From: Raillietiella orientalis | Lineage: Eukaryota | Assembly: GCA_036172245.1 (NCBI GenBank) | Contig: JAYWIR010000106.1 | Span: forward strand, 124,001 to 175,794 | Length of the DNA: 51,794 bases | Direction of reading: 5' to 3' | In this document: positions 452 to 51,545 of the stretch, in pieces | How positions within the stretch are numbered: position 1 is the stretch's first letter | How the letters are laid out: each line of letters begins with the position of its first letter | Position numbers and translations under genes: made by a program | Notes under the pieces: model-generated | Seen by the model: only the letters and a program-made list of their open reading frames with translations | Database searches by the model: none | Told to the model about the DNA's origin: nothing

Positions 452-3194
452 TTACGTTTCTTCATCATAATCATCATAAGCATCTCGTTTGCGCTTAATG
501 GATGTGTTGCCGTCAGGAACAGGTTCGTGCTTCGTGTTATTTTCGAATTTGAGGTTCGAGCCGCTTTGCACCATAGGTACTGAACTATTACTCACTTGTA
601 CCTTGGGAACTGTATTTGGTTGACCTTGGTAGGAAGGAGAATTAAAAATTTCCTGACACTCAAGTCTACCTGATGTCATGCGGATTAATGGGGTTCCAGG
701 CTTTGGCATTGTGATAATCTTGGGTTTGGTGTTGAGAGAGGATATATTTGAAGACATTAATGCATTTGTGGGAATGGCAATGGATGTGCCTCCTTGCTTC
801 ACAAAGCTCACTGCAGGAGTGCTAATAGGCTGACGTGATGCTGGACTACATGAAACATGAAAGCTGCTGCGGGATGGAACTGCAACCGGAGGCTATGGAC
901 AGGGCAAAAACCATTCAAAATACATGAGTTCATAGTTCAACGCAATCAATGTGTGCATGCACAGAAGCATGTGAACTGCTGTTTACATCTTCACTGCATT
1001 CCACAAGATCATTTGGGGTTAATTTTGATTATCAACACATGCAAGTCAGAAAGTTGGATTGATTGAGATGAATACTCCACAAACTAAATCCATTCTTTTA
1101 GTTCTTATAATGTGCTATATCATTCTAAACCAGTCACTTGTTGATTGTTGATGATTAACAATTTATTATTATGGAATCAGAACTCATCTTAATTATACCT
1201 TAACTATCATTTCAACACCTTTAAAACAACAAACTTGAGTAGGACTTTCATTATAAAATACAGATATGTTCAAATATTACTAACAAAATGGACTAAGAAA
1301 CAGCACCCTATCGGAATCATGTCCCATGTATTTATGTAACTTGCTTATTCTCAATACAAAGTACTCAGCATTTTCACTGCAGATTTCCGTTTTAAACACA
1401 AAAACAATACAAATATTGTTACCAAGTCTGTCATAGATTAACATGTGGTATTCAACGACATCTCATGGTCTGTACAACTATCTTCAATCATGTCCAGCTT
1501 GATACTGTGGACTAACAGGCAGACCGCTTTCCCTTTTTTTATAGATGACACATTTAGAAGATAAATACATTCCTCAAATCATCCACAGAACATCCAGAAG
1601 ATTTTCAAGCTGGATACCTAATGTCTCCAAATTCATAATTCATTCCTGGGTCCCAGAAAGAACAATCTTCCGAAAGAAAAACTCATTTTTAAGGGGAAAT
1701 TCACCATGCTGCTTGCAGCAACGTAACATATAAATGAAAACTGTAACGACATTCAATATATTCTTTCCCAGAATTTTCTGAATTACAATGTCAAATGCGA
1801 CACAAAAGCTACATGAGTAACATGCACAAGAACGAGAGCAAATCGAAAAAAAGACAAAAAGTAATAGGAAAAATCTTTTCATCAAAACACAATAGAACGC
1901 CAACGTTGTTCAAATTCCATTCTTTATTAAATGAAAAAAGTCAACATTTCAAATCAAACATTCTTTGTCACATAAAAGCCCACTGTGATATGAAAACCCA
2001 GCATTGTTCAGGGCGGTAGAAAATTGAACAGAAAAACTTAAACCCCAACACCAGAAAGGATTCAAAAATTTTCAAGTTCACGCTAGGAGCATAAAGTGTG
2101 CAACGGAAACACTTCAAAACCACTTTCACTTCATGGTGTAGTAATCATAGACCTTTAAACTCTACAACAGTTGAAAACAATGGAGCATACTTTATTTAGT
2201 GTCTTCCAACAAACAATAGGGAAAATAACATGTGACTGGTCGTAGTAACATCACACAAAATGTTAGCTCGATGATATACACCACAAATCCATAGATATTA
2301 ACTCTCACATGCAATCCAGGCACAAAAGAAAATACACAAGTACTCAACAGTCATCATACCACGCTAATTGTAGACTAATCAAAAGGAGCTGAAAAGTTTC
2401 CAGCACAAGAGAACATTTACAGTGAATGTAATTTGCATCAGCATACTGAAAACGCGCTTGCTACGCACATAACATTGCTAGTTTCCATTTGCAATTTCAT
2501 CCTTACCTTCTTTAGACCTTTCAGTTTCAGGTTGCTAGAAGTTAAGCAATAGCGATCTGGTGGTAGTCTTATACCACAGTGAGGTTTTATTGGCGGTAAA
2601 GGATTTGCATTGCGTACTCGAGCAATTTCTAAAAGGAGCTAGAAAATACACAAGTTACCATGTTTTTAGAGACTTACACACTCAACCGAACTATGCATTA
2701 AATATGTACAACTGATTTAATTCCCAACACCCTGACGAAGTTCATTCTCTTGTGACATTTCAAATCAGTACCAAAGCAAACCTACACTTGCTTTCAAATA
2801 ATACACTACATCAGCACGAAAGAAATCAAATCCCATACATCTCTTGGTGGAGGAGAGGTAAAACTTCTGTCCGTCTGAAGCCGAACTGCCAGTTTGATAT
2901 CTTCAATATCGATTTGTTTTTTTTTTGCATGCCCAGCATAGATTCTTGCATCTTCTAATATACCAGTGACATACCCTTGCAGAAAAGTTCTTTCATGCTT
3001 ATGCAAACAGGAATAAATAACTTACTATAGGTAAAATCCAACAATTGGTTCACTACTTTCGACTCATACTCATGAACCCCAAGATCCTTTAATATCGCGA
3101 TTATAATATGAGCATCTTTGGGCAAATTAGGTTTATTGACTCCGCTATAAGAATTTGTATTACTTATGGAAGAATGTTGCTTACTACCAGTCAT
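452..3194 (-). CDS. TAF9: Transcription initiation factor TFIID subunit 9, 4 exons, 292 aa
   Basis: Exons 3194-3026, 2975-2839, 2638-2507 and 892-452 have GT-AG introns and compatible phases (879 nt). The translation contains the TAF9 histone fold and downstream motifs: [104 protein letters not shown], and a C-terminal [14 protein letters not shown] like metazoan TAF9. Confidence 0.95.
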
Positions 3195-4399
3195 GTTTCA
3201 TGCTTTTCAATCAAGCATTACAACCGCACACGGATTCCACTTTCCGCAACAAGCAGTTTAAACAATGGTAGGGGTGCCACATTAGCTACATCGATAAAAG
3301 ATACAAGACGAATACTAATTAGAGAAATCCAAGTACTTTGCAGAACTGATCTCATAAAAGCATAGTCCATTTCAGTTTTATGCATGACCTGATCAAATCG
3401 TGAATTTTCTGAAAGCTGACGAATCGAATTCCTAATCAAACCAATTCGGTATTTCCGTCTAGTAAAGGCAGTTTCCAGCTTTCTTCGTACTCTAAAGTCA
3501 GTACATAATCCTCTAACTGGAGCTCCAGCCGGAAAATGTGATTCAACATTCACCTAACGAAGAAATTTAAGTAATAAAATCGAATGAGCTGAATATAGAA
3601 AGCAGCAAGCTTTCCTTCTGAGTACATGCAATTACAATTTTCTAAAGCAAAACTATACAAGAACTACAATTCTTAAAAACTCAGTTTCCATTCCTTTTCT
3701 CTTGGCTTTGAAATCTAATGAGTTTCAAGAACCCTTTTCATTCAAATCGTAACTATTTTTTACGGACTGCAGATGTATATTCATGTCGAAATTATCCATA
3801 AACTGAGACAAAAATATCCAAAGTTCATAATTATTTAACCATCGCGACATCGTCCAAATTGATTTACTCATGTTCGCAAAAACCGTGTGCCAGTTGCAAA
3901 AATTCACTCATGCGTTTTAAATATCTGTTACTCCTATGCATTATTCAATTTGGCAAACTTCCTCTTGCGGCAGTTGAGGTAGTATTTGCTTAGGAAACGC
4001 TTCCAAGGGAAACCTCGAGAATAAGTAGGGAATTTCAGCCAATAATGATGTACTTTTCAAAAGGAAAAATGTTCTCAATCTAGTAATCTAATTACCTGAA
4101 AGGGAATGATTTCTCGTGGAACCATTTTTCCATCAAATCCTTTACTACTGACTTTGCCAAATAGGACAGAAATTGGAGACCTCAGAAGAAATAAAGACGA
4201 GTTCGAACGCTTACTTTATTTGAGATAAACAAGAACTGAAAACACGAAAACGTGCACAGACGATTCTCATTGGACCAAAAGACTTTCGAGAATCACATCG
4301 GCAACAGGAGACATATATCCATTGGAGATTGCATCCACCGGTGCAGCACCCATTACCTATCGAGAAGAGTACTGGATTTGTAGATGAGCAACATGACAT

Positions 4400-11400: not shown

Positions 11401-12329
11401 TTGTCCTCTGGTTCTAATACATCGTTCTCTACCGGAGACACTGATGCTGAAGAAGATGCAAAGGCGAAGAAAGGAATAGCAAGCAACTGCTCTATGTTTT
11501 CAGGAAAGATTTTTTCTTCTCCCTGGCGGTCAACCACTTTGCAAGGGCAAGTCGGAAGGAAAGAGTTCGTTCCAGGACTGGTGAGCTGCATGAACCATTG
11601 GGAAGTCTTTATTGATAAAAGTGTTGACATTTGCTGTTGAAACTGTGCCATTGACCTCAATCGTCACCTAGAAACAATCCTCTCTTCGATTCAATTGAGA
11701 ACCCTTCCATTGCTAACTCAGAAACAAGAGAGAAACTCTTTTAGACGAGCAACGTTTCTTTTATGATAGGAACGCATTTCTTACTGGGATAGTAGCGAGC
11801 ACATATGACGTACTCTGGTTGATAACCGTGGAAATCCAACCACATGTTGCTATTACCCTTCGTTATGACGTGAACTGAACTCATCGCGCTTCCGTTATCT
11901 TCAAAGGTCAGAATGCGACGAAAAAGTGCGCGCAGCCCGCAAAGGCTTCTTCAAAGGACAAGAATGACATGTGGACACCTTGGAATGACAGTGTCTTTCC
12001 ATCGCTGTATCTACGAAAACCAACGCAACGCATAACTGATTCTTCTAACAGTCTCTCTGGATTCGACTCGCTTGTCTAATTCAGGCGGAAGTCATGAGTA
12101 GAAGTGACCCAGCAATGTCGACTGCGCTGGCAACACTGAACTTGCGCATTTCTTCCTTTGAAAACTCTACCGTCCTAGTTTTCAAAATTATGGAGAGTTC
12201 ATCGTTTGGCATACGAATAATTCCTTCAGCTTTTGAGAAATCTCCGACATTCATTATGCTCTTTGCTTGGACGCATCACGCACCATAGCACTCCCAGCAT
12301 CCTCAGCTTCGAAACAGATCAGTGCGTCT

Positions 12330-12800
12330 GTCGCAGCATCCTAATCGTTGACCCCATCTTTGTGGGGTAGAGTGGAAGAACGCAAACTTCGTCCATACAC
12401 CACTTGATCCTGGAACCGCTATGTAGTATGGCAAATCTACAGGAGAGACGTTTTGGGACGAAGAACTGGCCAAAGGGTTCCCTCAGGCACAGAAGGCAAT
12501 TTGGCAAAGATCGCAAAGCACAAATGTCCGGTGCATCAAGTGAATCAGAAGAGAATTGGAAAGCAGGAAGCGAATATCAATTGCACGCCGAAAGCCAGAA
12601 AACCGGAAGCATCGAGGTGCAGAGGATAACCTCGATGCCCAAGGTCCTAAGGCAGCGAAAAAATTTCTAAAATGTCTGCTGTCCACCGTGCTCAAGCCAC
12701 AGGCTACGGAGGCAAAGGAGGGATTGAAAGTCGCGTTCTGCGAGCCCTCTCCATGCATCTGAAAAGAAGTCCCGAAAGTGCGGCTTTCCTGCCCGCCAAC
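12330..12800 (+). mobile_element. LINE APE/linker relic upstream of cathepsin L (also duplicated at ~24570-25040)
   Basis: DPIFVG*SGRTQTSSIHHLIL (like PTF....S.ID.IL), FWDEELAKGFPQAQKAIWQR (PWW..EL......KAW) and AKKFLKCL (K.FW). Motif resemblance only. Confidence 0.35.
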
Positions 12801-13418
12801 GTCAGTTCATAAAGGAATCGTTCAATTTCACCGCCGCCTTCCCCGTTGAGGCACGCATAAGGTTCTCGCTCTCCTGACCAACCTTCGTGTGCACGTTCTA
12901 CTGTGTGCATTCCACATTTCTGGTAATGGGGGTTCCTCGTGCGATTTCTCAGTATGTCAATAGGAATTTGCAGCAGAGAGGTCAGCGCAGCAGCACCAGA
13001 GTGATTGGGAATTCATTGCGCGTTTGGTTGCCTCAATGGAAAGAGCGAAAGAGTGTGCAAGAGTTCCGGAAGCAACTTCTGTTGTGTGCCTTTTTTGAAC
13101 GCAGCTCACTGCAAACACCCGCGCGCTCACGCTTGGGTCTGAAGGATTGCATCGAGTCAAGGTGATGGTTGTGAATCGACCCCTGCACGAGAAATGACAA
13201 AAGGAGGGTTACCACAAAACATCCTTTTAATCGTGCGTATCTCACGATGAAGCCACGACTTTCCATCTGCTTGAGATACTTGAAGATTACGGATTTTAAA
13301 TTTGTAAATTATCTCTTCAGGAGGACACCTGCTCCCTGATAAGCACGTCCTCGACATCGGCAAAGGATATTAATAGGCGGGAACTGCAGACCAATTTGGC
13401 AGAAGGATTTCCTTGTCA

Positions 13419-13424
13419 TTTCAG
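13419..13424 (+). promoter_or_regulatory. TTTCAG splice acceptor 14 nt before the cathepsin L ATG (5'-UTR intron or trans-splice site)
   Basis: ccttgtcatttcag|agctcctcgcgaagATG; the same site is present in the duplicate. Confidence 0.5.
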
Positions 13425-13438
13425 AGCTCCTCGCGAAG

Positions 13439-15453
<2,015 letters not shown>

Positions 15454-15460
15454 ATTCGCA

Positions 15461-15466
15461 AATAAA
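15461..15466 (+). terminator. Polyadenylation signal of cathepsin L
   Basis: AATAAA 7 nt after the TAG stop, conserved in the duplicate at 27698. Confidence 0.7.
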
Positions 15467-16249
15467 CTTACAAGTTCTATGCTGAATGAAGGGTGTTGGG
15501 TGGCTTTGATGACGTTTGCTCCATTCTTCTACTCTCAAATTGGTGTTTCAACATCTGACTTACTGAAATCAGCTTTTCTCATTATTCCTTCTGACTGATC
15601 TGCCACTATGGGAAGTGTTGTTTCTTGAAGCTTTTCTGTAACCACACTCAAAGAAAGGAACATAAGTTTGTAAAGCATAGTGCAGCACGTGAAGTGTAGC
15701 AAATGTCAAAGTATCCTCTGCACCTTTTGGAATAGCTGGTGATTTATAACAAGTTACAAATTACCATGTCAAATACCTTCAGGTCGAATAGCATTGCTCA
15801 ACTGATCTAGAGTGCTACCTGATCTGTCAAGTTTGGGCACACGTGCATCGGAGGAAGTCGTGTTACAGTATCTACATATTTTGTGAAATCACCCACAACG
15901 GAAGCTCACCTTGGTATTATCCTCTCGTCTTCTTGTAACTTATTGATTCCGTCAAGAACAAGTGTACATCCTTCTTGCATATCAGTGCGTTTCTTCTATG
16001 GCCTACAGAGTCTCACTAACCATTCCAAAAATTACATCCATTACTGCAAAGTTCGCATCTCCTTTCTTTCCGAGCTCTTCAATGGCAGCACAGTTTTTCT
16101 CTCTACAGCATTAAGGAAAATTACAAACGAAAATTTTGGAACGACTTCCTAAATTCATCACCCTGATGAATGGTTCTAAGGGAAAGGGAACAAGTTGTAG
16201 GGAAATCTGGAGAAATTCCGAAGGAAATCAGGAAATGAGACACGCCGTC

Positions 16250-23993: not shown

Positions 23994-27724
<3,731 letters not shown>

Positions 27725-33750: not shown

Positions 33751-34049
33751 AGGATGCAAAGACGAAATCTGTGATCCCTTCGTTTCCCTCCCCAACTCAT
33801 TTTAAGAAGGGATTTGTGTGAGTGTGTGCGTGTGCGTGCTTTTTTTGTGCACCCCTTACCCATCTTTCCTGTGCGGACCCCATCGGAGCCGCTTGCTCCT
33901 GGTTGAGGGTTCGAACTCCATCCGGGGAAGAAAACAACGCCGAGAACGGGGCCTGCGTAGTGGATTTCGAGCCCATTTCCTCAGGAAGATGAGGGCTTCT
34001 ACTGCAATGGCACCAATGGAAGCCAGATGCTCCCTCTGACTGTCTGGAA

Positions 34050-35200
34050 GTCGACCCTTTCGAACCATTTCAGAAATCGAGGAGTCTCGGCGTTTCCCCT
34101 CTAGTGGCGAGAACGAGGCCGTATCACCATGGAGCTGGTTGATATTCCTCTCGGGAGATCCTTGCCAGAGTGTAAATGTCCCTCAGAGTAAACGGGAGGT
34201 GTCCCTTAGGGGTTCTTTTCAGAAAAGGAAAAAAGGAGCGGTTCCCTCACGCGCTATCACTCGAAAAGGGTCCAGGACTGAACCCTTTTTGAGTACCCTT
34301 CGGAAAAGAAAGGAGCAGTGGCCACAAAAATCAAGAATCCTTCCGCAGAGAATAAGGAAGAGGTCTCCTTCGAAGACAGCCAGGCTGGTGATTCAAGACG
34401 TTTCCTTCGGGATTCCCTTATAAGCGCAAGGCGAACGGACTCCTTGTCCAGGAGCCCTCCTGGATTCATAGGGAAGTCACTTATAATTTAAAAACTCTCA
34501 AGCACCATCGAGTAGCGTGGAAACGTGCCCAGAGTCATCATCCGAGGCAACATCTTGATACCACAGCATTTCGAAATCTTCTACAAGATGATGCTGAGAA
34601 GGGCAGCCGGACGCTGGCCGACCAGTCCAGTTTTTACCAAGCACGCCAGCAGTGATTATCCATGCGAACGATCTGCTTTTTTTGTTTTCCATCTCCGCCC
34701 ACACAGCCAGAGGATATCGTCCTTAACGAGGCAGTAGCTGACTCGCCGACGACTGGTCTGCAAAAGGAAAACGGCAAAAGGATGGCGTGGAGGTGAAGCT
34801 CTGGCAAATATAAGTACACCAGAGCGAACGGATGCAGGAAGAGAAGCGGCCACCCGAAGGCAGAACAATGGAATTCACGAATCATCAGTCCTGCAAGCAC
34901 CTCTGCAGCGAGAGGAAACGGAGGGAAACGAAGCGACGATAGAAGGAAGGGAACAGGAGCGAATCCCTCCTGACGCTGCACCTTCCCTTTTCAAGGACAC
35001 TCTCCTTCGAGCTGCTGACACAAAAAGACATCAATCACGCGAGGAAGCAGCTTCCCGACAGCTGCACTAATTGGAATTTCCCCCGGGCAGCGTAGGAATG
35101 TTCTGGATCGTGTCGAGAGCTGCACTGCCCGTACGTCCTGAGCGCTTGCAGCTTTCGAAAAAATGCAAAAATGCAAATTCAAACCCATTTCTTGGATTTT
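34050..35200 (+). mobile_element. Degenerate RTE-like LINE relic
   Basis: IFLSGD (APE), VIIRGNILIPQHFEIFYKMMLRR (YRGI.LL...KIF.KIL..R), TAKGWRGGEALA (GVRQG..LS) and LIGISPGQRR (GL.IN..K). Confidence 0.4.
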
Positions 35201-35519
35201 CGATTTATTTTCCTCGAGAGTGCGCTATTAGGGTGCGCTCGTCGCCCATAAAATGGCCTCCGTGCTGCAGGAACCGCAGTGCAGCTCTCATCTCTCTCAC
35301 GCATTGATCGAAGGAACCCCAGGTAGCGTCCCGTACCCGGCACGACACCCTCCCGTCCTCGGGTGGGCAATCCGACACAGTCCCGTTTAATGCAGGCGCT
35401 CGTGGCTCCACGCGTCCCGGCGTCTCGAGCGAATGCGCGCGACCGCGTCCTTCCCTGTGTGGCGAGGCAATCCCGCCGTGGTCAGAACGTGCACGCTCCA
35501 GCCGGTGCCAATTTTTCCT

Positions 35520-36750
35520 CGGATATCGGGATGGAACCCTAGCAACTGGACGTTGGACCCATGCGCGGAGCGGCATGCGATCTATGGAGAAGGGGCGCAG
35601 TGGTGCGCGTCCGCTGGCCGAAATGAGCGCCCCTGATTGCGCTCCTCAGTCCGACACCCCGAGCTTCGTCTTTCAAGCCCAATTGACTGTTCATCCGTTT
35701 CCCAACCACGCTCCGTACATCAGGAAGTAGGGTCAGCCCTAAGCTAGCCAACGTCAGCAGCAGGCGTTCTTGCGCCCTCGCGCGCGTTGTCGCGGCGCTC
35801 TGCAGAGCCACCGATAGCTCTGCTGTCTTCCAGGGAGCCTCTCCGCGACTACAGAAGAACTCATCCGAGGACCACGAAAGATGAACAGGCCCTCAGTACC
35901 ACTGTGTCTCCTGGTATGGGTGCTCTGCTCCGCCAGCCTATCAGCGATGCATTGCAAGTAAGTGGGGACACTGACAGAGGACATTCGACCCTGGTGATCG
36001 TTGACCTATACAACGCGTTTTAAATGCTGGTGTTCTGCATTTCTCGGATGTGCACATAAGACCTTCGAAATGCTGCTTGCTAAGCCCACTTCCGAATTAT
36101 TTTCCTGATACCGCAATCTTCGCCAGCTGACGCGTTCCCGTGGCCGAGCACGCGGAGTGTATGCGGTGTGAGTCCCGGAAGACAGAAACGCTGCCGCCGC
36201 CCTCGACAGCATGATCAACTTCTTCGGCATACCAAAGAGGCCGCTCGATCGCACCGACGCGTGCACCGTGTGTGCACCAGCGAAGAGCCGTTCTATCCCC
36301 GACCGGTTGCCATGTGGCGGCGCGATGGTCGCCTCTCAACTCCATCGGAAGCGCTGCGTGCGCGCACACGCGGACGCGCACTCCGCAGGTGGATGCGCGA
36401 AGCAAACCGTGGAGATGAGCAGGGCACGCAACCACACGGTGGTTGCTAAGCACCCACCAGGGGTGTCGCTTTCTCTTCAAGGGCGCTCGTGGAGCGAGCG
36501 ACTTCGGTTGCGTCTCATCTGTCAACGCGGGCTGCACGTTCCAAAGGAGATCGCGTTGCCAGACGGAGACCGGAAGCGTTTCGTCCACCTGTTTCTTCAG
36601 CGCTCGTCGCTCTTCGATTCGGATGGCGCATCCGGTGGTTTCCGAAAACTGCGGGAGATCATCGGAAGTGTGACGCGTTGCTTTGGCGTTCGCGCGGAGC
36701 TTACGCTGCTCTACAGCGCATCTTAACGGCTTCAAAGGGATGATGGCGAG
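35520..36750 (+). mobile_element. Degenerate, heavily deleted L1/Tx1-like LINE ORF2 relic
   Basis: LIALLSPT (DIALLQET), KLANV, TLVIVDLYNAF (matches AVDLYKAFD in the copy at ~46720), AALDSMINFFG and RFVHLFLQRSSL (zinc-finger H). Confidence 0.55.
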
Positions 36751-36797
36751 CACATGAGCTTGCGCGTCGGCTGGGCTGTCACCTCTCTCCACGTTCC

Positions 36798-39700
36798 ATG
36801 CTCCAGCTCTTCATCATGATCGTTTCTTGTTCCAGAAGCTGTTTAGGGTTTGCTAAAAATTTCCTGGCGAGGAAAGCCAAAAATCCCGTTTCTGTACGGC
36901 TGGCTCGAACCGTAGGAGGGGTAAGTCTGGGGTTTCTGGAGGGTGGTTTTTCTTCCATTCTGAAGGCACCGTCAGAGATCACTCGCATTCCCCCATCTCC
37001 TCCCTAAATCTCGCCCCTAATTTTGGGGATTCGCATCAACTTCCTTCCTCCTAGTTAGCGCGAGGAAGATGCGGTATCCCGGTGCAGTTGCTGGTTCTAG
37101 TTGCACCAAGTATTTGGAACCGTACTCTGCAGCTCGCTGGAATCGGAACAGGTGGACAAGAATGTCATCCGGCATTGTGGCCAGAAATATTCTTCCTTGC
37201 TTTTATATCCTCAAACGCTGTTCGACTTTCCTGCAATTGGCGAATTTCGAGGGAATTCTCCCGCATCCCAGAAAATCAGCGTGGCATCGACACCCTTTTC
37301 GAAAACGCTCCCTATGTCCCAGCCTTTCCTGAACGTGAGAGTCATCTTGCAGTGATGCAGGAACACGAGTGGTCCACTAAAACTCCGTCAAGAGCGTATG
37401 CAAAGACGCGACTCTCGGTGCTTCGGGGTACGCGGTGTCACCGTGAAGCCTCCTCCGTGAGTGACGCTTCGAGCATCACTCGGCAGAATGCGCTCAGCCT
37501 GCCGGCATCATGAACCTCCGCTGTCTCTGCACGCGCCTCAGGTACTCTTGCCGGCATTCGTTTCCGTGGGGGATGCTGTTTTTCTGTGGTGCGCGTCGGG
37601 TTCTACCGAAGGTGGATGCGCGTCGCAGACTAACGATGCGTGGGGCGCCTGCCGGTGTCCTGGGACGGCAGTCGAAAACCGGCAGCATCCAGGTCGCTTA
37701 ACCCCGGTATCCGCCGCAGTAAACAGTAACGTATGCTCTCCTAGCAGAGAGTGATGTGTTTCTAGAGTCCAGTGGTGACCTCACGGGGAGACCGATGCCT
37801 CTGGACTGGGTTGATGGAGATTTTTGGGAGTCTTCGGATTTCTCGGCTTTCCTTCCATGTTCTTTTTGTTTATTGGCTCGTCGAGTGCTGAGGAACCGTC
37901 CGCCTCAGGAAGGTTTACTAAGCTGTTTGCCATCGTCCACCTCACCCTTGATGCGTGGGGCTTTTCCATTTTGTGGGGAGCCACCTCAAAGGGACCATTC
38001 GATGAATCCGAGAGGGCTTCCTAGGGAGCAGTTCTCTCTCCTCTTATGCTTGGGAGGGTAAACCAGAAGGGAAACCTCGTTCTAGTTGACTTTAAGGGAT
38101 CCACTTCAGGAACCTCTTCCTCTCCGGAGGAGTTGGGGACCAGTCCTTATCTCTTCTCCAGAGGGTACCCAGAAAGTATCCGCTCCCAGATCCTTTTTTT
38201 CTAAGGTAACCCGCATCGGAGGATTCTCGGAAGGATCCTGAAAGAGCAACTTGTAATCTCGCTCATTCAGCGTGGGCATCGGTCTCCCAGAATTGCCGCA
38301 TTAGTAGCTCCAGCCATCGTCATCCGCGAAAACGATCTCGATACCTGCTGCCGCCACCTGCCGTCCCGGTGACCACACGAGCGGAAGAAGAAAACCCTTC
38401 GGCGGTTCAAGGCGCGACAGGAGCGCCGTTTGCTCTCGGACGCGGTTTCTCCTGGCAGCAGCGCGATCCGCCGCCTTGTGACTCGTCCCGGAGAGCGCTT
38501 GCAAGTTTTGCAAGACCCCTGAGGGGCCGCAAATGCTTCTGCACCCTCCAAGAAGGAAGGGAAGGGGGTAGAGGGAGAGGAATTCAGAACCCGCAGAGGC
38601 TGTCAGCCCCCTTCCCGAAACGCAGGTCATTGGGTTTTTTCAGGTTCTGCTGATGCCAGTGGAACTGGGGCAGCCTGGTCAAGAAATGGTGCCGTCATTG
38701 AACAGTTACAAGAACGAAATGTGGTTCCTGTCGACGTCTTTTGTTTCTAAAAGTGAGTTCCCAGTTAAAGCTGTAGCTGAAAGCTCTCTCTTCCTTGCAG
38801 ATCGCCATTTTTTCGTTCCATCTGCGTCTCCAAATTGTAAGGTTACTGATACGGAATTCCAGACCAGTGATCTGATAGTTTCTGAAACAAAATCTGTGAT
38901 AACCGGGCTCATGGCTGTCGACACTTTGAAGGTGAAGAAGGACGCGCGCGCGCTCTCTCGAAGCACGTAGCCGGTGACGATGGAGGGTCGACGGATGGCT
39001 TGCGCCGGTTGCGTCTCTGCTAAAGCGTCCTTGAGGTTCTCGTGAAACTCTCGTTCCTTAAGGACAAGCACCACGGAAGGGTGGCATGCAGTCTTCTGCG
39101 TAATGGATTGTTTCGCTTTCCCGCACTGCGCTTGCCCGCGCTCCTTTCCATTCACGAATGCGAAAAGAGCACGTCCAGGTTCCGTCAATTCGCTTCCCGG
39201 TGCTGTCTGGAAACCACCGCTTCTGTCCATGCTGTCACGTGCGCTTCGTCCTCATCACCCCAGTTCCTCTGTGGGTCGCGCGGCGTCCTCGTCCGCGCTT
39301 CAGCTGAAGGAAAACCGGCTCTTCCCGACTGCCTTCCAAGTCGGTTCAAGCCGGCTGTTTCACGCTACAGTGCCTCCCCTCAGACGAGCCGAAGAGGAAC
39401 GGGATGCAGTCGCCACACACGCATTGCTCGCTCGCGCGCGCTCTCAGGTGCCTCGCGAGGAGTACTTCTACAGCCGGTGGTATTGCCGGAAGCGAAGACA
39501 TCCCTCGGAGTGAGAGAAATGCCTCCATGTTTTTTTTTTTTTTTTTCAGATCGAAAACATCTCCATTCCGAATGCGGAATTTGGGATCGCCACCTCAATA
39601 CAGCCCAACTTTTCTGTTCTCGCTGACGGCGTGATTGGACTGGGCTTCCCTGTGAAGGGCAAAAATTCGCCTCTTCGAAGCATAATCCAAGCAGGAAGCC

Positions 39701-40553
39701 TCGAGCCCATGTATTCTGTCTGCCTACCCAGGTACGGTGGGTCCAAGCGGGGAACAGTCTCAACTGCTTCTCGATCGCCGACTGACCCCTCCTGACACCA
39801 CGGATGAATGCTGCCAGGCTGAAAGCGAAAGCTTGCTTTATGATTGCCTGCTCCGTTCCCCAAAACAGGAGAGTAAAAGCGCGTTGTTCCTCAGAAATGC
39901 TTTCTCTGATGGATGGCTGTACTTCGGTGGTAGCAGATCTGATCTGTACAAAGGAAAATTCTCCTACCACAGTCTGATCGAGAAATCGGACTCTCACTGG
40001 AAGATCAAGATAAAGAAGTGAGCCCAAAATTGTTCAGGTTCTGCTCTCACCTCCCTCCTCCCCCGTTAGAGTGGTGTTCAACAAGCACACGCTGTGTGAT
40101 GGGTGCGTGGGGAAGGTGGTCATGGGATTTGGGCTAGCTGGTCCCAAGAGTCAGGTTTCCAAGATTCTAGAGGATCTGGGAGTACATTCGGAAAAGCGAG
40201 GGCATTATTTCTCGGAAGTAAGCTAACCAGCTTCTCGCTTCCCTTCACGCGAGGTTTTTCTCTTAGGTGAAATGTCAGCGTGAGTTTCCTATGCTGACTT
40301 TCTCAGTGGACAAATCGGTGTACGTACTGGAAGAGAAAGACTACATTACAAAGGTGAGTTAACGCGCTCCATGTCAACGCCACCCCAAATGTGATCACCC
40401 GCGCAGAAGGGGAACGACAACTGCACCGTGGAAATCTCAATGATGCCAAACGAAGACAATGTGTGGTACATTGGAGACCAATTCCTTATGAAGTACTGCG
40501 TCTCCTTCGACTATGGAAAGAAAAGGGTTGGCTTTGCGGAACAGAAAAACTAA
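36798..40553 (+). CDS. Pepsin-family (A1) aspartic protease homolog lacking both catalytic Asp (candidate secreted pseudoprotease), 8 exons, ~349 aa
   Basis: Exons 36798-36920 (less certain), 38644-38752, 38801-38931, 39550-39731, 39895-40017, 40070-40217, 40267-40353 and 40407-40553 are all GT-AG, phase-consistent and stop-free (1050 nt). Pepsin-fold landmarks: VELGQPGQE, FVPSAS, ITGLMAVDTLKI, FGIAT, DGVIGLGFP, YSVCL, GWLYFGG, HWKIKI, LCDGC, LAGP, FPMLTF...YVL...DYI, WYIGDQFLMKYCVSFDYGKKRVGFA. Confidence 0.88.
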
Positions 40554-40749
40554 GCAGGTTTCTCCCGCGTCGACCACGAGGATGGGCAAGGAGCTGCGTG
40601 TGGACTGCATGCTTGCGTCCTTCGCGGAAAATACATAGTGCACACTCCTAGGCTTCTAGTTTCTCAGCGTTCCCACTGACTCCCAAAACGGGGACGGGGG
40701 GTCCGACGGGCACAAGGGATGCAGCCTGCGTGGTCTGCGCGCGATGACA

Positions 40750-42500
40750 CCCAAGCTTCTAGGGTTTTAACCCCTCCCGGGAAGAATCGACGCCGGGAAT
40801 GGGTGTGCCATCGTGGATTTCTAGTCCATCCCTGAAGGTTCACGCTGGCTGGTTCACGGGTTTCAGTAGCAGCGGAGCTGGATGCTCTTCCTGACTGGCT
40901 GGAATTGGAAATCGACCCTCCAGGCACCTTCCAGGAATCGAGGAGGCTCAGATTCCCCCTCCGGTGGTGAGAACGGAACCTCACCACCATGAAGCTGATT
41001 GACATTCCCCTTGGGGAGTTTCCTCTCCAGTGTCAGGAATGCCCTCCTGAAAAAACGGGGGATGTCCTTTTGACGTTCTCTTCGGCGTCTCTGGGCTAGG
41101 AAGCAGGGCGACCATGCCTCCGGATGCAATGAGGGCGAAGGTTCTCTTCGGACTTTCCTCCCGAGCGTGACAGGAGCGGACTGTTGCCTCCTGAGGCTTC
41201 CTGAATTAACGGGGTGGTCCATCCAGGTTGCTCCTGAATTGAAGGGTCACATGCACTCGTGTTAGTTCTCAGGAGATGTAAATGCCCCGGCTGGGGAATT
41301 CCCGAGCTGATTAGCTGGGAGTGCATCTCCCATCTGCTCAGGGAATTCCTCCCTTTTGCTCCATCTTCTCCATTTTCTTCTCCCAGATAGCAAGGAACCT
41401 CGTTCCTTGTGAATCTTGAAAAAAAAAAAGAAAAAGGAAGAGAAATTTCGAAATTCCCTTCTGATGGGTAGTCCCTCGGAGCATTCGCAGGAAAAGCAAG
41501 TCAAGCAAAACATGATAAATGTAGGGTAGATGGTGGGAACACCGGGACTCCCGACCCTTTGGAACCAAGAACGCTGCAACCACATGAGCGGGCCCTCTTG
41601 CTCGTTCCTTCGATGATTGTTTTCAGAGGATCGTCGATCCTCTGAAGAGAACTTCTGGACCGGCACGAGATCACTAGATCTCTCAGGGTAGAGCCACTCA
41701 ACCGCGCCCGAGTATCCGCGGATCCCTACCGTCGAGAATGGGAGGTCAAAGGGCGAGAAGAGAACCCCTCTCTGGCGTCCTGGGAGGAGTCCGGGCCTCT
41801 TCAGTGGAAATCCCAAAGCTGTACCCACCCTTGAGCCTGAGTGAGCGGAGCACCTGATGCACCTCCCTCTAATCCGGGTGTTCCTTTCCGTGGAACTCTA
41901 GGTGGGAGACAGGCACCACTGCTGGTTCCATGTCACAAAGACTCTTCCAAGATGGAGCTGCGGTTTCATCCTTTCCAGCGTAAAGATGCCGCATCACTCT
42001 GCGGAGCGGACCTTCTCACGGAAGTGGGACTGCAAGGCGCTTCAGAGGGTCTTCCTCGACAGTCTGTTGGCCCGTCGTCTCGCCTCGACGGGTGGGGAAC
42101 AAACAAAAAGGAGCAGTCTCAGGAGGAGGGCAACAAAAGAGTTCCACCTGTCGGAGGTTCGCTCCGGAAGGTTCACAGCTTCCGGGTGACTAAGCCAATC
42201 AGCGGGCATCCTTCACATGCTCATGGAGACTCCGGATGTCCCTTTCCCTGGAAACTCCAGCTCGAATTCGAGCCTGAGATGGTCCAGAGCCGAAGTGACC
42301 CTTTCTCAACCGCCCATTTGACAGCTCAAGTTTTATACAAGGAAGGCGTGGTCGATGGCCTCGTGCATCCCAGGTTATCCGGTCAGCAAGTTGCTTGCAT
42401 TCACGGATGCACACAGCTCGTTGGCTACGAAGAAGGAAAGGCCTCTACCAAAGATGCCTGTTCCCTTCTCCCTATCTTTTTCCCAATGATTTGTTGTCTC
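40750..42500 (+). mobile_element. Degenerate RTE-like LINE relic
   Basis: SGDVNAPAG (APE GDFNARVG, ~41270), SCGFI...RVFLD (QxGF...FLD), SFRVTKPISG (F.V..GV.QG) and SGQQVACIHGCTQLVG (G..LE.V..FKYLG). Confidence 0.45.
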
Positions 42501-43635: not shown

Positions 43636-43751
43636 ACAAATAACTTTGTAAGCAACTTCGGGTGCGGACGTGTTTTTTCCGCGCTCCTCTGCGCCTGTTG
43701 TAAAGGCTTTCGTTGCGTTAGTGTTTGTGTGTGGTGCATCTGCGGTGTCCA

Positions 43752-45775
43752 ATGGCAGAAATGCCTGGGGACACCGCGATGGAGATCGGAGAGGGAGAGG
43801 CCTGTTCCTCTCCCCAAACCATAGAGGTGGAAGCAACCGCCACCTTGAAAAAGAAGAAACCGTCCCGTCGGAAACGAGGGCTACCGCCCCCTTGAAAAAG
43901 GGAGCAACTGCCCCCGTGCAAAAGAATGCAACCGTCCTCTTGGAAAAGGGGACAAACGCCACCCCGGAAAAAGGAGCAACCTCATCCTTGGATCCTTCCT
44001 CGGGAACGACGAAGACCTGGAGCGCCGTGGCTGCAGCACCATCCCCTGAAGCCATTGCCGAACTGTGTGCCTACCGGGATCAAGGGTATGAACCATCCTT
44101 GATTTATAAGGTAGGCAACCTTTTTGTGGGGAACACCGCTCGTAAATTTGAGAGAGAGTTACAGCGGTTGAATGTGAAAGAGGAAGACCTGGAAGGTATC
44201 TCCGTGATGAGTGGGGGCCAGCAGGTGGAGCTGACTTGCAAAGATGCAAGCCTGACTCAGCGCCTGCTGAACACTCCCATTACACTGGATGGCCGAAAGG
44301 TCTTACCGGTAACGGAAGATCGCTCCATTGTTGCACACCTAACCGGTGTAACTATTCGCATGACCAAAGCTGGCGTGCAGGAAGAGTTGCAAAAACATGG
44401 TACGGTGCACGCGCTCTGGACCAAGCCGAACGTCTTCCAAACATACGGAAGACTGTTCAGTGGCATGGCTGCAGCGCGTGTGACCGTCCACGAAAACGGT
44501 GGGCTGCCCCACAAACTCGACGTCGGCAACGAGGTCGTCGACATTTGGTACGTGGGCAAACCCAAGTACTGTGGGCACTGTGATGCAACAGGGCATCTGA
44601 AAAAACGGTGCCCTCACATCCAGTGTTTCCACTGCTGGGAGAAGGGCCATCTCCGGAAAGTGTGCCCAAAGCGGGAACCTCCAGCGCCCTCTGCCTTGAA
44701 AAAAGGTAATGGGAAGCGCTTGGAGAAAGCACGAAAGTCCAATGAGCCAACAGAGCGACAAAGCCAAAAGCTTGTGCTCGAACCCTCCCAGGAAACGCCG
44801 GTCGAGAAAACTCGCGACGACGCTGGTGAGAACGAGGGCTGGCGGACGGAGAAGCCCAAAAGTAAAAAACCCAGGAAAACCAAAGAACCGACAGCGGAAC
44901 CCGCGACATCTCAATTAAATAGGAGACAACGCCGCGCTTTACTCCGCGAATGTTCGGTCGCTTTGGAGCGAGTGGAGATCCCCGAGACATCCACCGGGGG
45001 AGATATCCCCCGCCTCGTTGACGACGAAGTCGCGACCGCGGAAGGCGAACCCTCTGTGCAAACAGAGGGGGAGCCGAGCGACGCGCTCGCCGTAATCGAG
45101 GACGCCGCCTCCCAACAGGTGGCGGAACAGCTCGCGTCCGAACTCGCGGACCGTAAAAACGGCGCGCGAAAGGCCTTGCGAAGGCCGGCCGCGACCAGGG
45201 CACCTCCGACAGGTGACCACGACCCGGATGACGGAAGTGCGTCCTCCTCCGCAGAGGCGCCTCCGAAGAAGACTAGACGGAAGTCCAAGAATCCGAAGAG
45301 GCGCATCCCGACGAAGAAAGAGGGGGACGCACCGGCAGCCGAGGGGGAATCCGGCAGCGTGGGAACGGAGGGAGCGATTTTCCCACCTTCCGCTACCGAG
45401 CAGCTGGCCACCCTGATGGAGGAGGGGGAGAAGGTAAGTGATTGCCGCCCCCTTCCAAAAGTGGGACCTGCTGAGGAGATAACCATGGAGGAGGGGGAGC
45501 AGACAGTTGACAACCGCTCCCCCCTGCCGTCCAGCTCAGCCGACGAATCGCCTCCCATGGAAGAGGGGGAGCAGATGCGTAAAACCCGCACCCTTCAACC
45601 GTTGCGGTCCGCCGAGGAATCAGCCCCCATAGAGGAGGGAGAACCGGTGAACGGTGATCTCATTCCTCCATTCGTCCCACCCGACCAGGGGGCGGGCACC
45701 CCATTGTCAGTTTCCCAGGAGCAACACCTGAGCTCGCCTGTCGCCGTCGATTACGCGTGGCCTGTTGGAACGTGA
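43752..45775 (+). CDS. LINE ORF1 (gag-like nucleic-acid-binding protein, RRM-like + 2 CCHC knuckles), one frameshift near 43848
   Basis: The likely ATG at 43752 (MAEMPGD...ATATL) is one frame off the 701-aa ORF. Knuckles CGHCDATGHLKKRC and CFHCWEKGHLRKVC are at 44570-44665, followed by a long acidic/basic disordered tail. Confidence 0.85.
43833..43992 (+). repeat. 24-bp coding minisatellite (~7 units, ATAPLEKG-like octapeptide) in ORF1
   Basis: gctaccgcccccttgaaaaaggga / gcaactgcccccgtgcaaaagaat / gcaaccgtcctcttggaaaagggg / acaaacgccaccccggaaaaagga and related units. Confidence 0.85.
45416..45660 (+). repeat. 69-72 bp coding repeat (4 units starting MEEGE/IEEGE) at the ORF1 C-terminus
   Basis: Unit starts at 45416, 45485, 45557 and 45629. 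Confidence 0.8.
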
Positions 45776-46764: not shown

Positions 46765-49700
46765 ACGATTATTCTGAAATCAACATTTACAAAGACGTGC
46801 AGTGGCTGGACCATTGCTCCAGTCACGCACGGAGGAACACAGAGCCTGCCGGGTCACCGGTTCATAGACCGGTACGGTCCAAGACGGCAGCAGGGGGAAG
46901 GAGGAAAAACAAAAAAACAAAACAAAAAAGAAAAGAGAAGTTGGAAGGGTACGGGAAGAGATCAATGTAGCTGGTGGGGCCATTGCATCCTTTGCAGGAT
47001 GCCGGCAAGCTCCTTCTGTATTGCTGCATCCAGTTGGAACCATCGAGACGCCCTCCTCAGGAACTGTAAGGCTAGCTGGATGGCACACATGTCGTGTGGT
47101 CCTCCCGTAGCCTTGCTCCAGGCGGCGAAAATCCCGCGAAGGCAGCACAGGGCTGCTAACGAGGCCACTGGCCGAAGGGCGTCGGCAACGAAGAGGGCTT
47201 TCAGAACGTCCCTGGGGTTGCCGCAGGGGATTCCAATGGCCGCGGCAAAGCGGAAACAAAGAGGCCGAAGGGCAACACAATCCACTAGCAGGTGGTGGAG
47301 GATATCCCGTTCCCAACACCTGACGCAATTGGGGTCCACCGCTCCCCAGGTCCGGTGGTGTCGGCGAGCGTTGCAAGGGAGTCCCCAGTGCTGCAACAGA
47401 AGAGCCGAATCCTGCCGCTTTGAGGGGGGGGTGGAGGTGTTCCCCAGTATTGGGGGCCACTTCCAACGTTCGATGGGAACGTCAAGCAGCGCGCCCCAGC
47501 GTAGAAGTCAATTGAAAGGCGTATTCGGGGTGGCAGCGTCAGTGAGCTGACCCGTCTTCCACTCTCCTATCTTCTTCTCCTTCTTGGAGATTGTTACTGT
47601 AACCTCCCACTTCGCCGCAAAATCGCTGTCCAGATCTTCCATCAGGGAGGGCAGCGCAGCAGCGAGGGGAGTTCTTCCTGCCCTCGCTCTCTTCTTTGGG
47701 TCCTCCAGGATCTCGCGGAGCGTGCAACTTCTGTAACCCCCAAACAGGAACCTTTGTTCCTGTTGGAAGCGTTTCATGGCGAACTGTCCCCACGTTCGAA
47801 CGGTTTCCTGCAACCAGGCACTACCGTTTAAAGGGCGACAGGTGACCATTCCTGGGTTTTTCCCTGCCAGCGCAGCCACCCTCCGTAGCTGAAGTCCGCA
47901 TCGGTTGACGCGGCAACGGAGTGCAAGAAACGTCTTGCCATTGGCTTGCTGGAGAAGGAGAAGTGCAGGGACGCACCAATAGGTGCACCACAACTCTGGA
48001 ACGAGTGCCGACAATCGGAACTGGAGCTAAAGCTCCAGCCGCTAAAGCGTCAGGAGGCCCAGACCACCGTTCCGACGACGAGCGCACAAGTCCTTTAAGC
48101 GGACTCGGGCCCGCCCGTTAGTCCAAACGGCGATACGGAGGAGGTCCTTTGTCCGCTTTTTAATTCTCTCTGTGGTAAGGCGAACAAAAAGCAGGAGGCG
48201 GTGGAAAGGAGCCGCGGACGTGTTCCAAACCGCGGCCCGTTCAGGCAGGAAAAACTTGTCGCCTCGCCGGGCTGATCGCCGTCTCTACTTTTTGGAGGCA
48301 GCCCGACCACGCTTCCGCAGGGGAGTAGTCCCCCAACGGCACACCAAGGTACTTGAAGTACCTCACCGTGGGGATTAGCAAACGGACCCAGTCCTGCTGC
48401 CCTGCCCACGCCGCACCAACTGGCATCACGGACGACTCCGCCCTGTTCACCGTAAGTCCGGTTCCCCGATGCAGCAGGTCAAAGAACTCCTCGACCGCCG
48501 CAGCCGGGGTGGACATAGGGAGCAGCAGCAGAAGGTCGTCCGCGTATGCTGAAACGGCCGGCGTAACGGCACAGTCGTTTGGCAGATGCGTCAGAGTTCC
48601 CCTGTACGCTCTCAGTACCAACTCAAAGTAGGTACTGAAGAGCAAGGAATTCAGGCTGTCTTTCTGCCTGATCCTACGCCGCACGGGCACGCCGTGAATA
48701 GTCTGCCCGCTGAAAGTAACGTTGATGAGCGCGCCGCGCCAGCTGGAGCGCAGATAGGCCAGTAATGAGGCCGGGAAGCCCAAGGTTTCCAGAAGCTCCA
48801 GAAGGAGATTCTGGTCGACGCAATCGAATGCTTACGGCAAGTCGACTGCGACCGCAAGGGCTCCCTCTGCCATCCGACCATCCGACCCCTTGCCGGCGCA
48901 CGCACTGGAATTCCGGCGGCGCACTAAGCTTCTTTCTTGTTAAGCTATAGCCAGGTGGAAGCGTGGAACAGGTTCGCCTCCATGCTTCGCCTGGGAACAG
49001 CATTTGTCTGTTCCGGGCTGATGAAGCTGTTGGCATCCCGTCCCAATCACTCTGCCCAAACTTTAGCTAGCAACTTGGCGTCCGCATTCACTATTGTGAT
49101 GGGACGCCAGATGTTCATGCTCCTAAGATCTCCTGCCTTAGGGAGGAGCCGCACCTTTGTTGAACGAAACGAGGCGGGAACTTTACCTGTCTCGTGTAGC
49201 AGCAGGGAGACTTGCTGTACCAGGGGGGTAAGCTGAGCCGCGAAAGTTTGGTAAAACTACGCGGGCAGGCCGTCCTTCCCTGGAGCCTTGCGCCTCTTGA
49301 GCTTCCCGATGGCCGACAGGATCTCGTCCATCGTGAAAAACTCGTCGAGGGTCTTTCTCTCCTCCTCCCCGATCGCTGGAGCGCCTTCTTGAAGCAGAAG
49401 TCGTGAGACGTTGCTCTCTGGAGGTGCCCTGGCATACAGGGAGGAGTAGTAACTCCGCAGCAGGCCGCGGATTTGAGCGGGTGCCGAGTGCTCCTGACGC
49501 TGATCGTCCAGCAAGCTGGCCGATCCAAACTGCCAGGCTTGCCTCTCGGCACCCGCTTTGTATATTGCCAGCCTGCGGATATCGGGGGTCCTGGCGTAGC
49601 GACGGGCCTGCAGATAGGCTCGTTTGTTACGGACTTCGGTCTCAACACCCGTAGGTGAGCGGTGCAAAGGGAACTGTTCGCAGAACTCCTGTTCCGACCG

Positions 49701-50378
49701 CTTAAAGCGGTCCCAATCCTGGAGTGTCCGCAGCCTGAGGCTCCGTATGAACGTGCGGAGATGTTCCGCCGCGTCCGGGAGCTTCAACCGGTCCCCTGAG
49801 AGACGCCATGTTGACAAGGGGGGGCCCTTGTCGCGCGGATGGATCTCGAGGACTACCGGGCGATGGTCAGACAGCTCGCACGGTAAGTTGCCGCGCCTGC
49901 CTACGCGAGGGCGCAGGTGCTGGTCAAGAAACACGTGGTCAATGCTGTCTTCCATCCCCGTTGGACTGGCCCACATATTACAGGTGTGCAGCGCCATGCA
50001 CACCTCGTTGACCAGGTCACGCTCGGGATTTCGCCCATCTGGTTTCAGGCGAACGTTGAAATCGCCTGCAACCAGATGGGCATTCCGCACGCCTGCTTTG
50101 GTCAGCCAGTTGCGCCTTAGGGCAAGGAAAAACTCTTTCCTCGCCCTCCTGTTCATCAGGTCCGCGCCTCTCGGTGCGTACACGTTCTTCACGAGCATAT
50201 CGATCGAGTGGGACCACCTGAGAGTCAGCTGGCCGACACGATCGTGATCGTTGAACCGCACGCCCAGAGTAGCGGCCTCGACGGCTAGCCGAAGCAGGTA
50301 GGCGACACCGCAGCTTTTCTGTTTCCCACACCTATACCATAGCCGCCATCCGGAGATCCGTTCGATCTCTTGCGCTTG
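46765..50378 (-). mobile_element. L1/Tx1-like LINE copy C: almost complete but frameshifted ORF2 (APE-RT-zinc finger) plus 3' UTR
   Basis: AQEIERI...NVYAP...VAGDFNV...IDHVF...SDHRPV (APE); KAPGKDGLPA, WRPITIVN, RIRQKD, VSAYADDLLLL, GLTVNRAES and FKYLGV (RT); CVRC...HHLLVDC (zinc finger); T-rich 3' UTR at ~46900. Confidence 0.93.
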
Positions 50379-51545
50379 TACAGTGCAGACGTGTTTCCGC
50401 GTCTATCCGCGCCAACGATAGGGCAACTTTGTGCCTGCGTTTTCGCTCACGATTGTATGTTCCTGTGCAATCTGCCAAGTAGCATAGTGCAACATGGCCA
50501 GTATACAGGATACTGTGGAGGAGCAAGCGACTGGATGCACTTCAGCTGCACTTGAAGCGGCCGCATCCTCTGTAATGGTTTCGTCGCCCCCAGTGAGGAG
50601 TTACGCCACCGTTACCTCCCAAAGACCGGGACCCTGCGATGCGGAGTTCCAGGCATATGTGTCATCAGGATACATGCCTGCACTCCGTTATAAGGTCAGT
50701 GGGCCCTTTAACGGGAGAATCGGTCGTGAGCTCAATGATGAGCTCGTCCGAATCGGCGTTCGCGAGGAGGAACTCCTTGCCATAATGCCTGCTGGCAGGA
50801 TGGAATATACGAAGATTCGGTGCAAGAACGCAGCACTTGTGCAGCGCCTTCTCCGTACGCCGTTGACCATCAATGGCAAGGAATTCCTACCTACCGCGAT
50901 GGACGACTCTTTTGTCGTTCAATTGTGCGACATCGAATCGGAAATGTCCGAACGCGATGTTGTAAGCGTGCTAGCGAAGTTCGCCACCGTGCACGCCCTA
51001 AGGAGGAGGCCGAACACTTTGAAGGATTTCTCCTCTGTCCACATGGCACAAGCCTCCGCGCGGATCACCGTCGCTAAATAGCGTGTTGTGCCTGAGCAGC
51101 TGCAGGTGAATAAAAAACGTCGTCCGCAAAAACTCGGAAAAAACAACGAGCGATCCGCGGATGAAAAGAAAGCATCCCCGCCCGCAACGCCCCGAAAGGG
51201 GAAAGTCACGGCGGGGAAGCCAATTAAAAAGGGGCGCGAGGGTTTGACGCGTGCCGTGCCTTCCCTCTCTGCCGAACTCACAGGCACCTCTCCGAGCCAG
51301 GAACCAGGAAATCTCCGTAACACCCTAGAGTAAAAGGTAGGAAAACAAAAAGATGGCAACAGTGCGAAGACTTCTTGCCCCGTTCCGTTGTCCCTTAAGA
51401 GGTCCGAACAGCCCCATTGCAGCGCAGGCCCCTCTGCGAAGGCTACGAAAGCCGTAAAAAGCAGCGTCGCGACGAGCAAAAGCATGCTGCATGCAGTCGC
51501 CTTATCGCCGACTCGGCAGTTTTCCCCAAGTCCCAGAAGGGGTGG
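50379..51545 (+). mobile_element. L1/Tx1-like LINE copy D: 5' UTR and degenerate ORF1
   Basis: 5' UTR similar to copy B. ORF1 from ATG 50494 is homologous to B ORF1 (GYMPALRYKV vs GYEPSLIYKV; CKNAALVQRLLRTPLTINGK vs CKDASLTQRLLNTPITLDGR). Stop at 51081; the knuckle region is deleted. Confidence 0.88.

Follow-up and report, generated by a model that had tools for sequence, protein, structure and literature searches.

We examined a 51,794-nucleotide stretch of the Raillietiella orientalis genome (assembly GCA_036172245.1, contig JAYWIR010000106.1, positions 124,001 to 175,794 of the forward strand), hereafter the window, in which eight plus-strand exons within positions 36798-40553 compose a gene whose predicted product resembles pepsin. 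Neither of the two catalytic aspartates nor the flap tyrosine is left in this product, which nonetheless keeps the scaffold of peptidase family A1, and we consider it a probable pseudoprotease. When the gene model was rebuilt from sequence, the exons spliced into 1068 nt, comprising 355 codons and a TAA stop without any internal stop codon. All seven introns are of the GT..AG type and their phases are compatible, in agreement with the first-pass annotation of this DNA, which had proposed eight exons joined in frame at canonical splice sites. The donors are, in order, GTAAGT, GTGAGT, GTGAAG, GTACGG, GTGAGC, GTAAGC and GTGAGT, the acceptors are all AG, and the intron lengths are 1705, 48, 618, 163, 52, 49 and 53 nt. 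The two other frames of the spliced sequence contain 21 and 12 stops, the stop density of the whole window (0.032 per codon) gives a P of ~1e-5 for 355 open codons, and none of 20000 shuffles of the coding sequence (CDS) stayed open. The open frame of 355 codons is more than chance.

Homology to the pepsin family was examined exon by exon against the Pfam Asp profile (PF00026), a HMMER comparison that the first-pass annotation had suggested as a check. Three of the eight exons matched in colinear order, with E values of 0.0049 (exon 4), 0.13 (exon 5) and 6.5e-7 (exon 8), exon 8 alone exceeding the curated cut-off (29.5 vs 19.9 bits); the other five exons, including those expected to carry the catalytic motifs, had no Pfam match at E<=10. 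With a hidden Markov model (HMM) built from 19 active-domain segments, the spliced product was recognized as one domain spanning residues 53-354 (157.7 bits, E 2e-50), and the seven domain exons were colinear with the family profile except for a five-residue insertion at the flap and a few short indels. Similarly, BLASTP against the nearest database proteins gave 27% identity over 314-325 aa (residues 53-352, E 2e-30 to 7e-26). The comparison proteins were picked through the C-terminal exon, so that the C-terminal match is not independent of this choice, whereas the match of the N-terminal lobe (N-lobe) is independent.

Further searches were carried out with single exons. Exon 8, searched with phmmer against 1.84 billion representatives, retrieved 29 proteins at E<=0.001 (best 53 bits), the named ones being A1 proteases of a sea spider, nematodes, a sea slug, a chytrid and a dinoflagellate. 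Among the 60 listed of its 62 matches in the PDB were procardosin, plasmepsins, cathepsin D, gastricsin, renin, pepsin and chymosin, with scores of 29.4 bits for procardosin B and ~27 bits for the plasmepsins. Exon 4 matched gastricsin in the PDB (E 0.0065); its matches to designed armadillo-repeat proteins were judged spurious, as they summed weak repeats with no stretch passing. A PDB sequence search with exons 2 and 6, which hold the motif remnants, gave no match at E<=10, and a read-through of the N-lobe in the protein atlas was uninformative (best 0.78, to a bacterial hypothetical cluster). These data indicate that the predicted gene product is, by homology, a member of peptidase family A1.

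The catalytic apparatus of this family was then sought in the alignments. Where the family carries its first catalytic motif, exon 2 reads LNSYKNEMWFLS, on which MAFFT and HMMER agree, the HMMER posterior being '*' across the motif. N-S-Y occupies 38701-38709 within S-L-N-S-Y-K at 38695-38712, and the first catalytic residue of active A1 peptidases, Asp32, is Asn. The flap I-x-Y-G-x-G is replaced by V-S-E-T-K-S in both alignments, directly after the five-residue insertion, with Glu in the column of the flap tyrosine (Tyr75), Thr in place of Gly76 and Ser in place of Gly78. The second motif, IVDTGTSL, reads VVMGFGL with V-M-G at 40119-40127, and Asp215 is either substituted by Val (MAFFT) or lost with the Thr column as a deletion (HMMER), leaving no Asp in either case. 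The 14 active comparison domains have both D[TS]G motifs, for which they were selected, and the flap tyrosine; the present protein has none of these. Its residues 1-99 contain no Asp at all, and the nearest Asp of the C-terminal lobe (C-lobe), D239, belongs to the CDGC hairpin and precedes the catalytic position by 7 residues. Moreover, D[TS]G is absent from the three plus-strand frames of 35000-42000, and thus no hidden exon there would be able to restore the motif.

In the part of PMC2761423 that treats the family, the motif of active A1 peptidases is given as hydrophobic-hydrophobic-Asp-Thr/Ser-Gly-Ser/Thr, and the family definition comprises a pair of Asp motifs, a flap Tyr and psi-loops. 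Under this definition the present protein would belong to the family through its descent yet be unable to act as a peptidase. Because Asp32, Asp215, their adjacent residues and the flap Tyr and Gly are all replaced, water activation in the manner of pepsin would be impossible. The predicted catalytic centre has Asn, Tyr and Lys on one side and Val, Met and Phe on the other; the substitutions G34Y, D215V, T216M and T218F only suggest a more hydrophobic cleft.

The scaffold, on the other hand, is largely kept. Both psi-loop motifs, in which a hydrophobic pair precedes Gly, are present at the family columns (V-I-G in DGVIGLG and Y-I-G in WYIGD), the GG core and the stretch FDYGKKRVGFA are retained, and the cysteine pairs 238/241 and 281/313 stand at homologous columns; the first classical pair (pepsin C45/C50) is absent. 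The first-pass annotation had described a pepsin-fold homologue without both catalytic Asp, with DTG changed to NSY and VMG at exactly the positions given above, the flap YGxG replaced, and the psi-loops and two standard disulfides kept, and the alignments bear out this description, for the disulfides at the level of the cysteine pairs, adding that the flap reads ETKS behind an insertion.

Retention of the fold and of the scaffold that forms the cleft would also be expected if the protein were still a protease with a non-canonical catalytic arrangement, by analogy with the histo-aspartic protease of Plasmodium, in which His32 is combined with Asp215. However, both aspartates and not just one have gone here, the first 99 residues contain no Asp, D239 is displaced from the catalytic position, replacement extends to the flap Tyr and to the neighbouring Thr and Ser, and the predicted isoelectric point (pI) is basic, which makes such an enzyme extremely improbable.

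A different question is whether the gene model itself is wrong, such that other exons restore a catalytic motif or supply a propeptide, or that the true 5' end lies elsewhere. Only four things speak for the join of exon 1: the phase fits, residues 2-9 are hydrophobic, GC dips locally (0.44-0.48 vs 0.56-0.60 in the flanks), and the stretch VSVRLARTV matches plausibly with the N-terminal strand of mature pepsins in the MAFFT alignment. This join is putative, and exon 2 has two candidate in-frame acceptors 18 nt apart (38626 and 38644), the downstream one having the better pyrimidine tract. In addition, the second intron (38753-38800, 48 nt) contains no stop and preserves the reading frame; if retained, it would add 16 residues without a frameshift. 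Nevertheless, when additional 5' exons or a propeptide were sought, no open reading frame (ORF) of the first intron matched Pfam at E<=10, and tblastn queries taken from the N-termini of 11 homologues recovered exon 2 only, plus matches at chance level (e.g. 35365-35430, E 0.19). Together with the lack of D[TS]G in the plus-strand frames of 35000-42000 and the colinearity of the seven domain exons with the family profile, these results make a wrong model very unlikely.

Whether the frame is maintained or decaying was assessed in several ways. In the 14 active domains, all cleanly delimited, 42 columns are at least 85% conserved, and the present protein keeps only 1 of the 11 catalytic and flap columns vs 24 of the 31 others (Fisher p = 1.2e-4), four of the seven changes in the latter being conservative. 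The motif sites are saturated, as replacing these 11 codons (33 nt) took no fewer than 18 nucleotide changes. In a simulation of neutral decay by substitutions only (4000 runs per rate), a run counted as intact if it retained the start codon, an open frame and all 14 splice dinucleotides, which was so in 50% of runs at 0.01 substitutions per site, 25% at 0.02, 3.5% at 0.05, 0.18% at 0.1 and none of 4000 at 0.15. The two cathepsin-L copies of the window serve as an internal control: 77 of 939 coding nt differ between them, and copy 2 is already interrupted by three in-frame stops. The CDS also has a coding-type periodicity, with GC of 0.48/0.36/0.55 at codon positions 1/2/3, and GC is 0.42-0.51 in the exons, 0.48-0.585 in the introns and 0.55-0.59 in the flanks. 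Taken together, the selectivity and depth of the loss, the internal control and the base composition indicate that selection acted on the frame during the replacement of the catalytic residues, which supports the earlier suggestion of a maintained rather than decaying frame.

Several observations weigh against a gene that is still maintained. The 1.25 kb that follow the stop contain no AATAAA, ATTAAA or common variant, and the 800 nt upstream hold no TATA box, whereas the intact cathepsin-L gene of the window has AATAAA ~10 nt after its stop. The gene sits among decayed fragments of long interspersed nuclear elements (LINEs), and exon 1 is joined to exon 2 across the unusually long 1705-nt intron, with no homology support for the join. 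The mature protein would have an odd number of cysteines (seven), C96, C185 and C338 being unpaired by homology. Neither an ortholog nor a paralog was found: word-index protein searches with exons 4 and 8 returned no relatives, and the window holds no second copy. The gene is so split and divergent that the ORF lists and these word-index searches missed it. Three loci from a metagenome scan with exon 4 were rejected as unrelated, each having only a 46-residue local match with the rest of the gene absent. Furthermore, the selective-loss argument assumes an ancestor with canonical motifs, and it dates selection to the past, so that a recently dead gene that was already non-catalytic would look alike.

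Such an unexpressed relic, derived from an already non-catalytic or very divergent gene that died recently (for example when transposon insertions cost it its promoter or 3' end) and whose frame is not yet damaged, is a possible but doubtful explanation. The missing signals, the transposon-rich surroundings, the unsupported exon 1 junction, the status as a singleton without a detected close relative and the demonstrable pseudogene next to it (cathepsin-L copy 2) would all be in line with it. Yet there is not a single disabling mutation in 355 codons and 14 splice dinucleotides, the scaffold columns are kept, coding periodicity is present, and the gene could only have died very recently, with less than ~2% neutral change for even odds of survival. 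Our preferred reading, to which we assign a probability of roughly 0.58, is therefore a protein-coding gene for a maintained non-catalytic A1 (pepsin) homologue, that is, a pseudoprotease.

The coordinates of the gene and its neighbours are collected in Table 1. The first-pass annotation had described the neighbouring transposon DNA as decayed, and this was confirmed in part only, by endonuclease and reverse transcriptase (RT) fragments in separate frames and by weak LINE-like remnants. Non-long-terminal-repeat (non-LTR) retrotransposon remains are split over different frames, and a diverged repeat in the same orientation flanks the pepsin-like gene, with ~36-80% translated identity in short segments. 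Further upstream lies a gapless direct duplication of 3731 nt with 97.1% identity and a cathepsin-L gene in each copy; these genes are of a typical metazoan type with an I29 propeptide, a C1 domain and introns of ~40-50 nt, and a word-index search with a cathepsin-L exon gave generic cathepsin L/K matches only. Their coding difference (8.2%) exceeds the average of the segment (2.9%) and falls mainly in the 3' exons. One exon, in an AT-rich region with a local GC of 0.37-0.39, comes from a TAF9 (TFIID 31 kDa) homologue and shares 21 of 33 residues with Drosophila TAF9 (PDB 1taf), as counted by hand from the alignment. This match, which led us to discard a coccidian or alveolate origin, is the strongest hint of a metazoan genome; with the cathepsin-L type, the introns of ~50 nt in both the cathepsin-L and the pepsin-like gene and the undepleted CpG, it suggests a metazoan invertebrate. 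An Rfam search of the whole window gave no match.

Table 1 Features of the pepsin-like gene and its surroundings in the window.
Feature	Position	Strand	Description
Exon 1 (proposed)	36798..36920	+	ATG start; hydrophobic run at residues 2-9 (signal-like); donor GTAAGT, phase 0
Exon 2	38626..38752	+	N-lobe active-site strand; family IGTPPQ reads LGQPGQ; alternative in-frame acceptor at 38644
Exon 3	38801..38931	+	Contains the remodelled flap (MAFFT/HMMER alignment)
Exon 4	39550..39731	+	N-lobe psi-loop DGVIGLG; Pfam Asp positions 80-142
Exon 5	39895..40017	+	Inter-lobe region LYFGG...HWKIKI; Pfam Asp positions 151-183
Exon 6	40070..40217	+	CDGC hairpin (Cys238/241) and second catalytic motif remnant (alignment)
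Exon 7	40267..40353	+	Cys281, first member of the conserved cysteine pair in the C-lobe (alignment)
Exon 8	40407..40553	+	Cys313, psi-loop WYIGD, FDYGKKRVGFA, TAA; Pfam Asp positions 272-314
First catalytic motif remnant	38701..38715	+	DTGSS to NSYKN (Asp32 to Asn)
Flap remnant	38884-38895	+	YGxG to ETKS, five-residue insertion ahead
Second catalytic motif remnant	40119..40133	+	DTGTS to VMGFG
TAF9 homologue exon	2958-3197	-	PF02291, E 5e-11
Direct duplication, copy 1	11757-15487		Contains a cathepsin-L gene
Cathepsin-L copy 1	about 14092-15450		Open; AATAAA at 15461
Direct duplication, copy 2	23994-27724		Contains a cathepsin-L gene
Cathepsin-L copy 2	about 26329-27684		Three in-frame stops
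LINE-like remnants	32.3-33.6 kb		Weak translated similarity to the non-LTR retrotransposon remains below
Diverged repeat	33928-34219		Same orientation as the repeat below
Diverged repeat	40778-41082		Same orientation as the repeat above
Non-LTR retrotransposon remains	43652-45772	+	707-aa open frame; CCHC knuckles by eye; no Pfam match at E<=0.001
Non-LTR retrotransposon remains	48244-48831	-	RT fragment, PF00078, E 9e-5
Non-LTR retrotransposon remains	49260-50402	-	Endonuclease fragment, PF03372, E 2e-6

Members of family A1 that are not peptidases have been well documented, and the present gene would add another that does not appear to be specifically related to those named. As members unable to be peptidases, PMC2761423 names the pregnancy-associated glycoproteins (PAGs) of artiodactyls and a xylanase inhibitor, PMC2682831 deals with the PAG family, and PMC9541408 refers to Bla g 2 of the German cockroach as an 'inactive aspartic protease' allergen. 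Like the present gene, PAGs combine the pepsin fold with active-site residues that are not conserved, but they form a large, placenta-expressed, mammal-specific multigene family, whereas the present gene is a singleton with introns of ~50 nt in a genome that is not CpG-depleted (CpG observed/expected 0.93; GC ~0.37 to 0.60 along the window). In many PAGs at least one of the two Asp survives, unlike in the present protein, which lacks both as well as the flap Tyr. Bla g 2 is likewise an invertebrate protein with a pepsin fold that is regarded as catalytically inactive; it keeps both Asp and is crippled by neighbouring substitutions, whereas in the present protein the Asp themselves are replaced. 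We saw no specific relationship between the two sequences, the present protein being nearest to ordinary active A1 domains at ~27% identity.

A pepsin scaffold can be reused for binding and inhibition, as in plant inhibitors with this fold, among them the wheat xylanase inhibitor (Pfam TAXI_N and TAXI_C). TAXI_N and TAXI_C matches below the curated cut-offs were obtained on two exons (E 0.012 and 0.027), weaker than those of Asp on the same exons; TAXI proteins belong to the plant A1B lineage, and no sign of a glycosidase partner was seen for the present gene. No PAG, Bla g 2 or xylanase-inhibitor chain was found among the 60 listed of the 62 PDB matches, which were obtained with exon 8 only. 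The best matches are instead active A1 proteases of the cathepsin D, plasmepsin and phytepsin type, and exon 8 shares the plasmepsin-like C-terminus ending in KN. A further apparent A1 pseudoprotease was noted in the databases: P0147 (793 aa) has two tandem pepsin domains in which the first Asp is kept in FDTS or FDTV and the second catalytic Asp is missing (IESIRE and VASVLS), and it is unrelated in detail to the gene in the window.

As to function, the predicted protein keeps a two-lobed scaffold, to which belong the two psi-loops, the core between the lobes, two classical cysteine pairs out of three and the C-terminal strand. It probably has no propeptide, because exon 1 joins the mature domain directly, and it may enter the secretory pathway, because it has a hydrophobic N-terminus and the spliced product contains three N-x-S/T sites. 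Its predicted pI is 8.98, compared with 4.5-5.8 in 13 of the 14 active relatives. A peptide or protein may be bound in or near the remodelled cleft, which would be partly filled by Tyr, Met and Phe. The intact scaffold, the replaced catalytic centre, the apparent lack of a propeptide, the signal-like N-terminus, the N-x-S/T sites and the basic pI all point to a binding role, and from these predicted properties we infer that it most likely serves in the secretory pathway as a binding protein without catalytic activity. None of the results points to a particular partner, and the roles put forward in the first-pass annotation (decoy, inhibitor, allergen or host-interaction effector) gained no support. 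A more specific proposal, which we consider unlikely, is that it could be a lineage-specific, basic, propeptide-less secreted decoy or inhibitor acting in a digestive or host-interaction setting shared with the neighbouring cathepsin-L genes, with the cleft as a hydrophobic ligand pocket.

Binding proteins, inhibitors and allergens have repeatedly arisen from enzymes that lost their activity but not their fold. With its frame intact while both catalytic Asp, the flap Tyr and apparently the propeptide are gone, this pepsin homologue would represent a clean case of such a protein.

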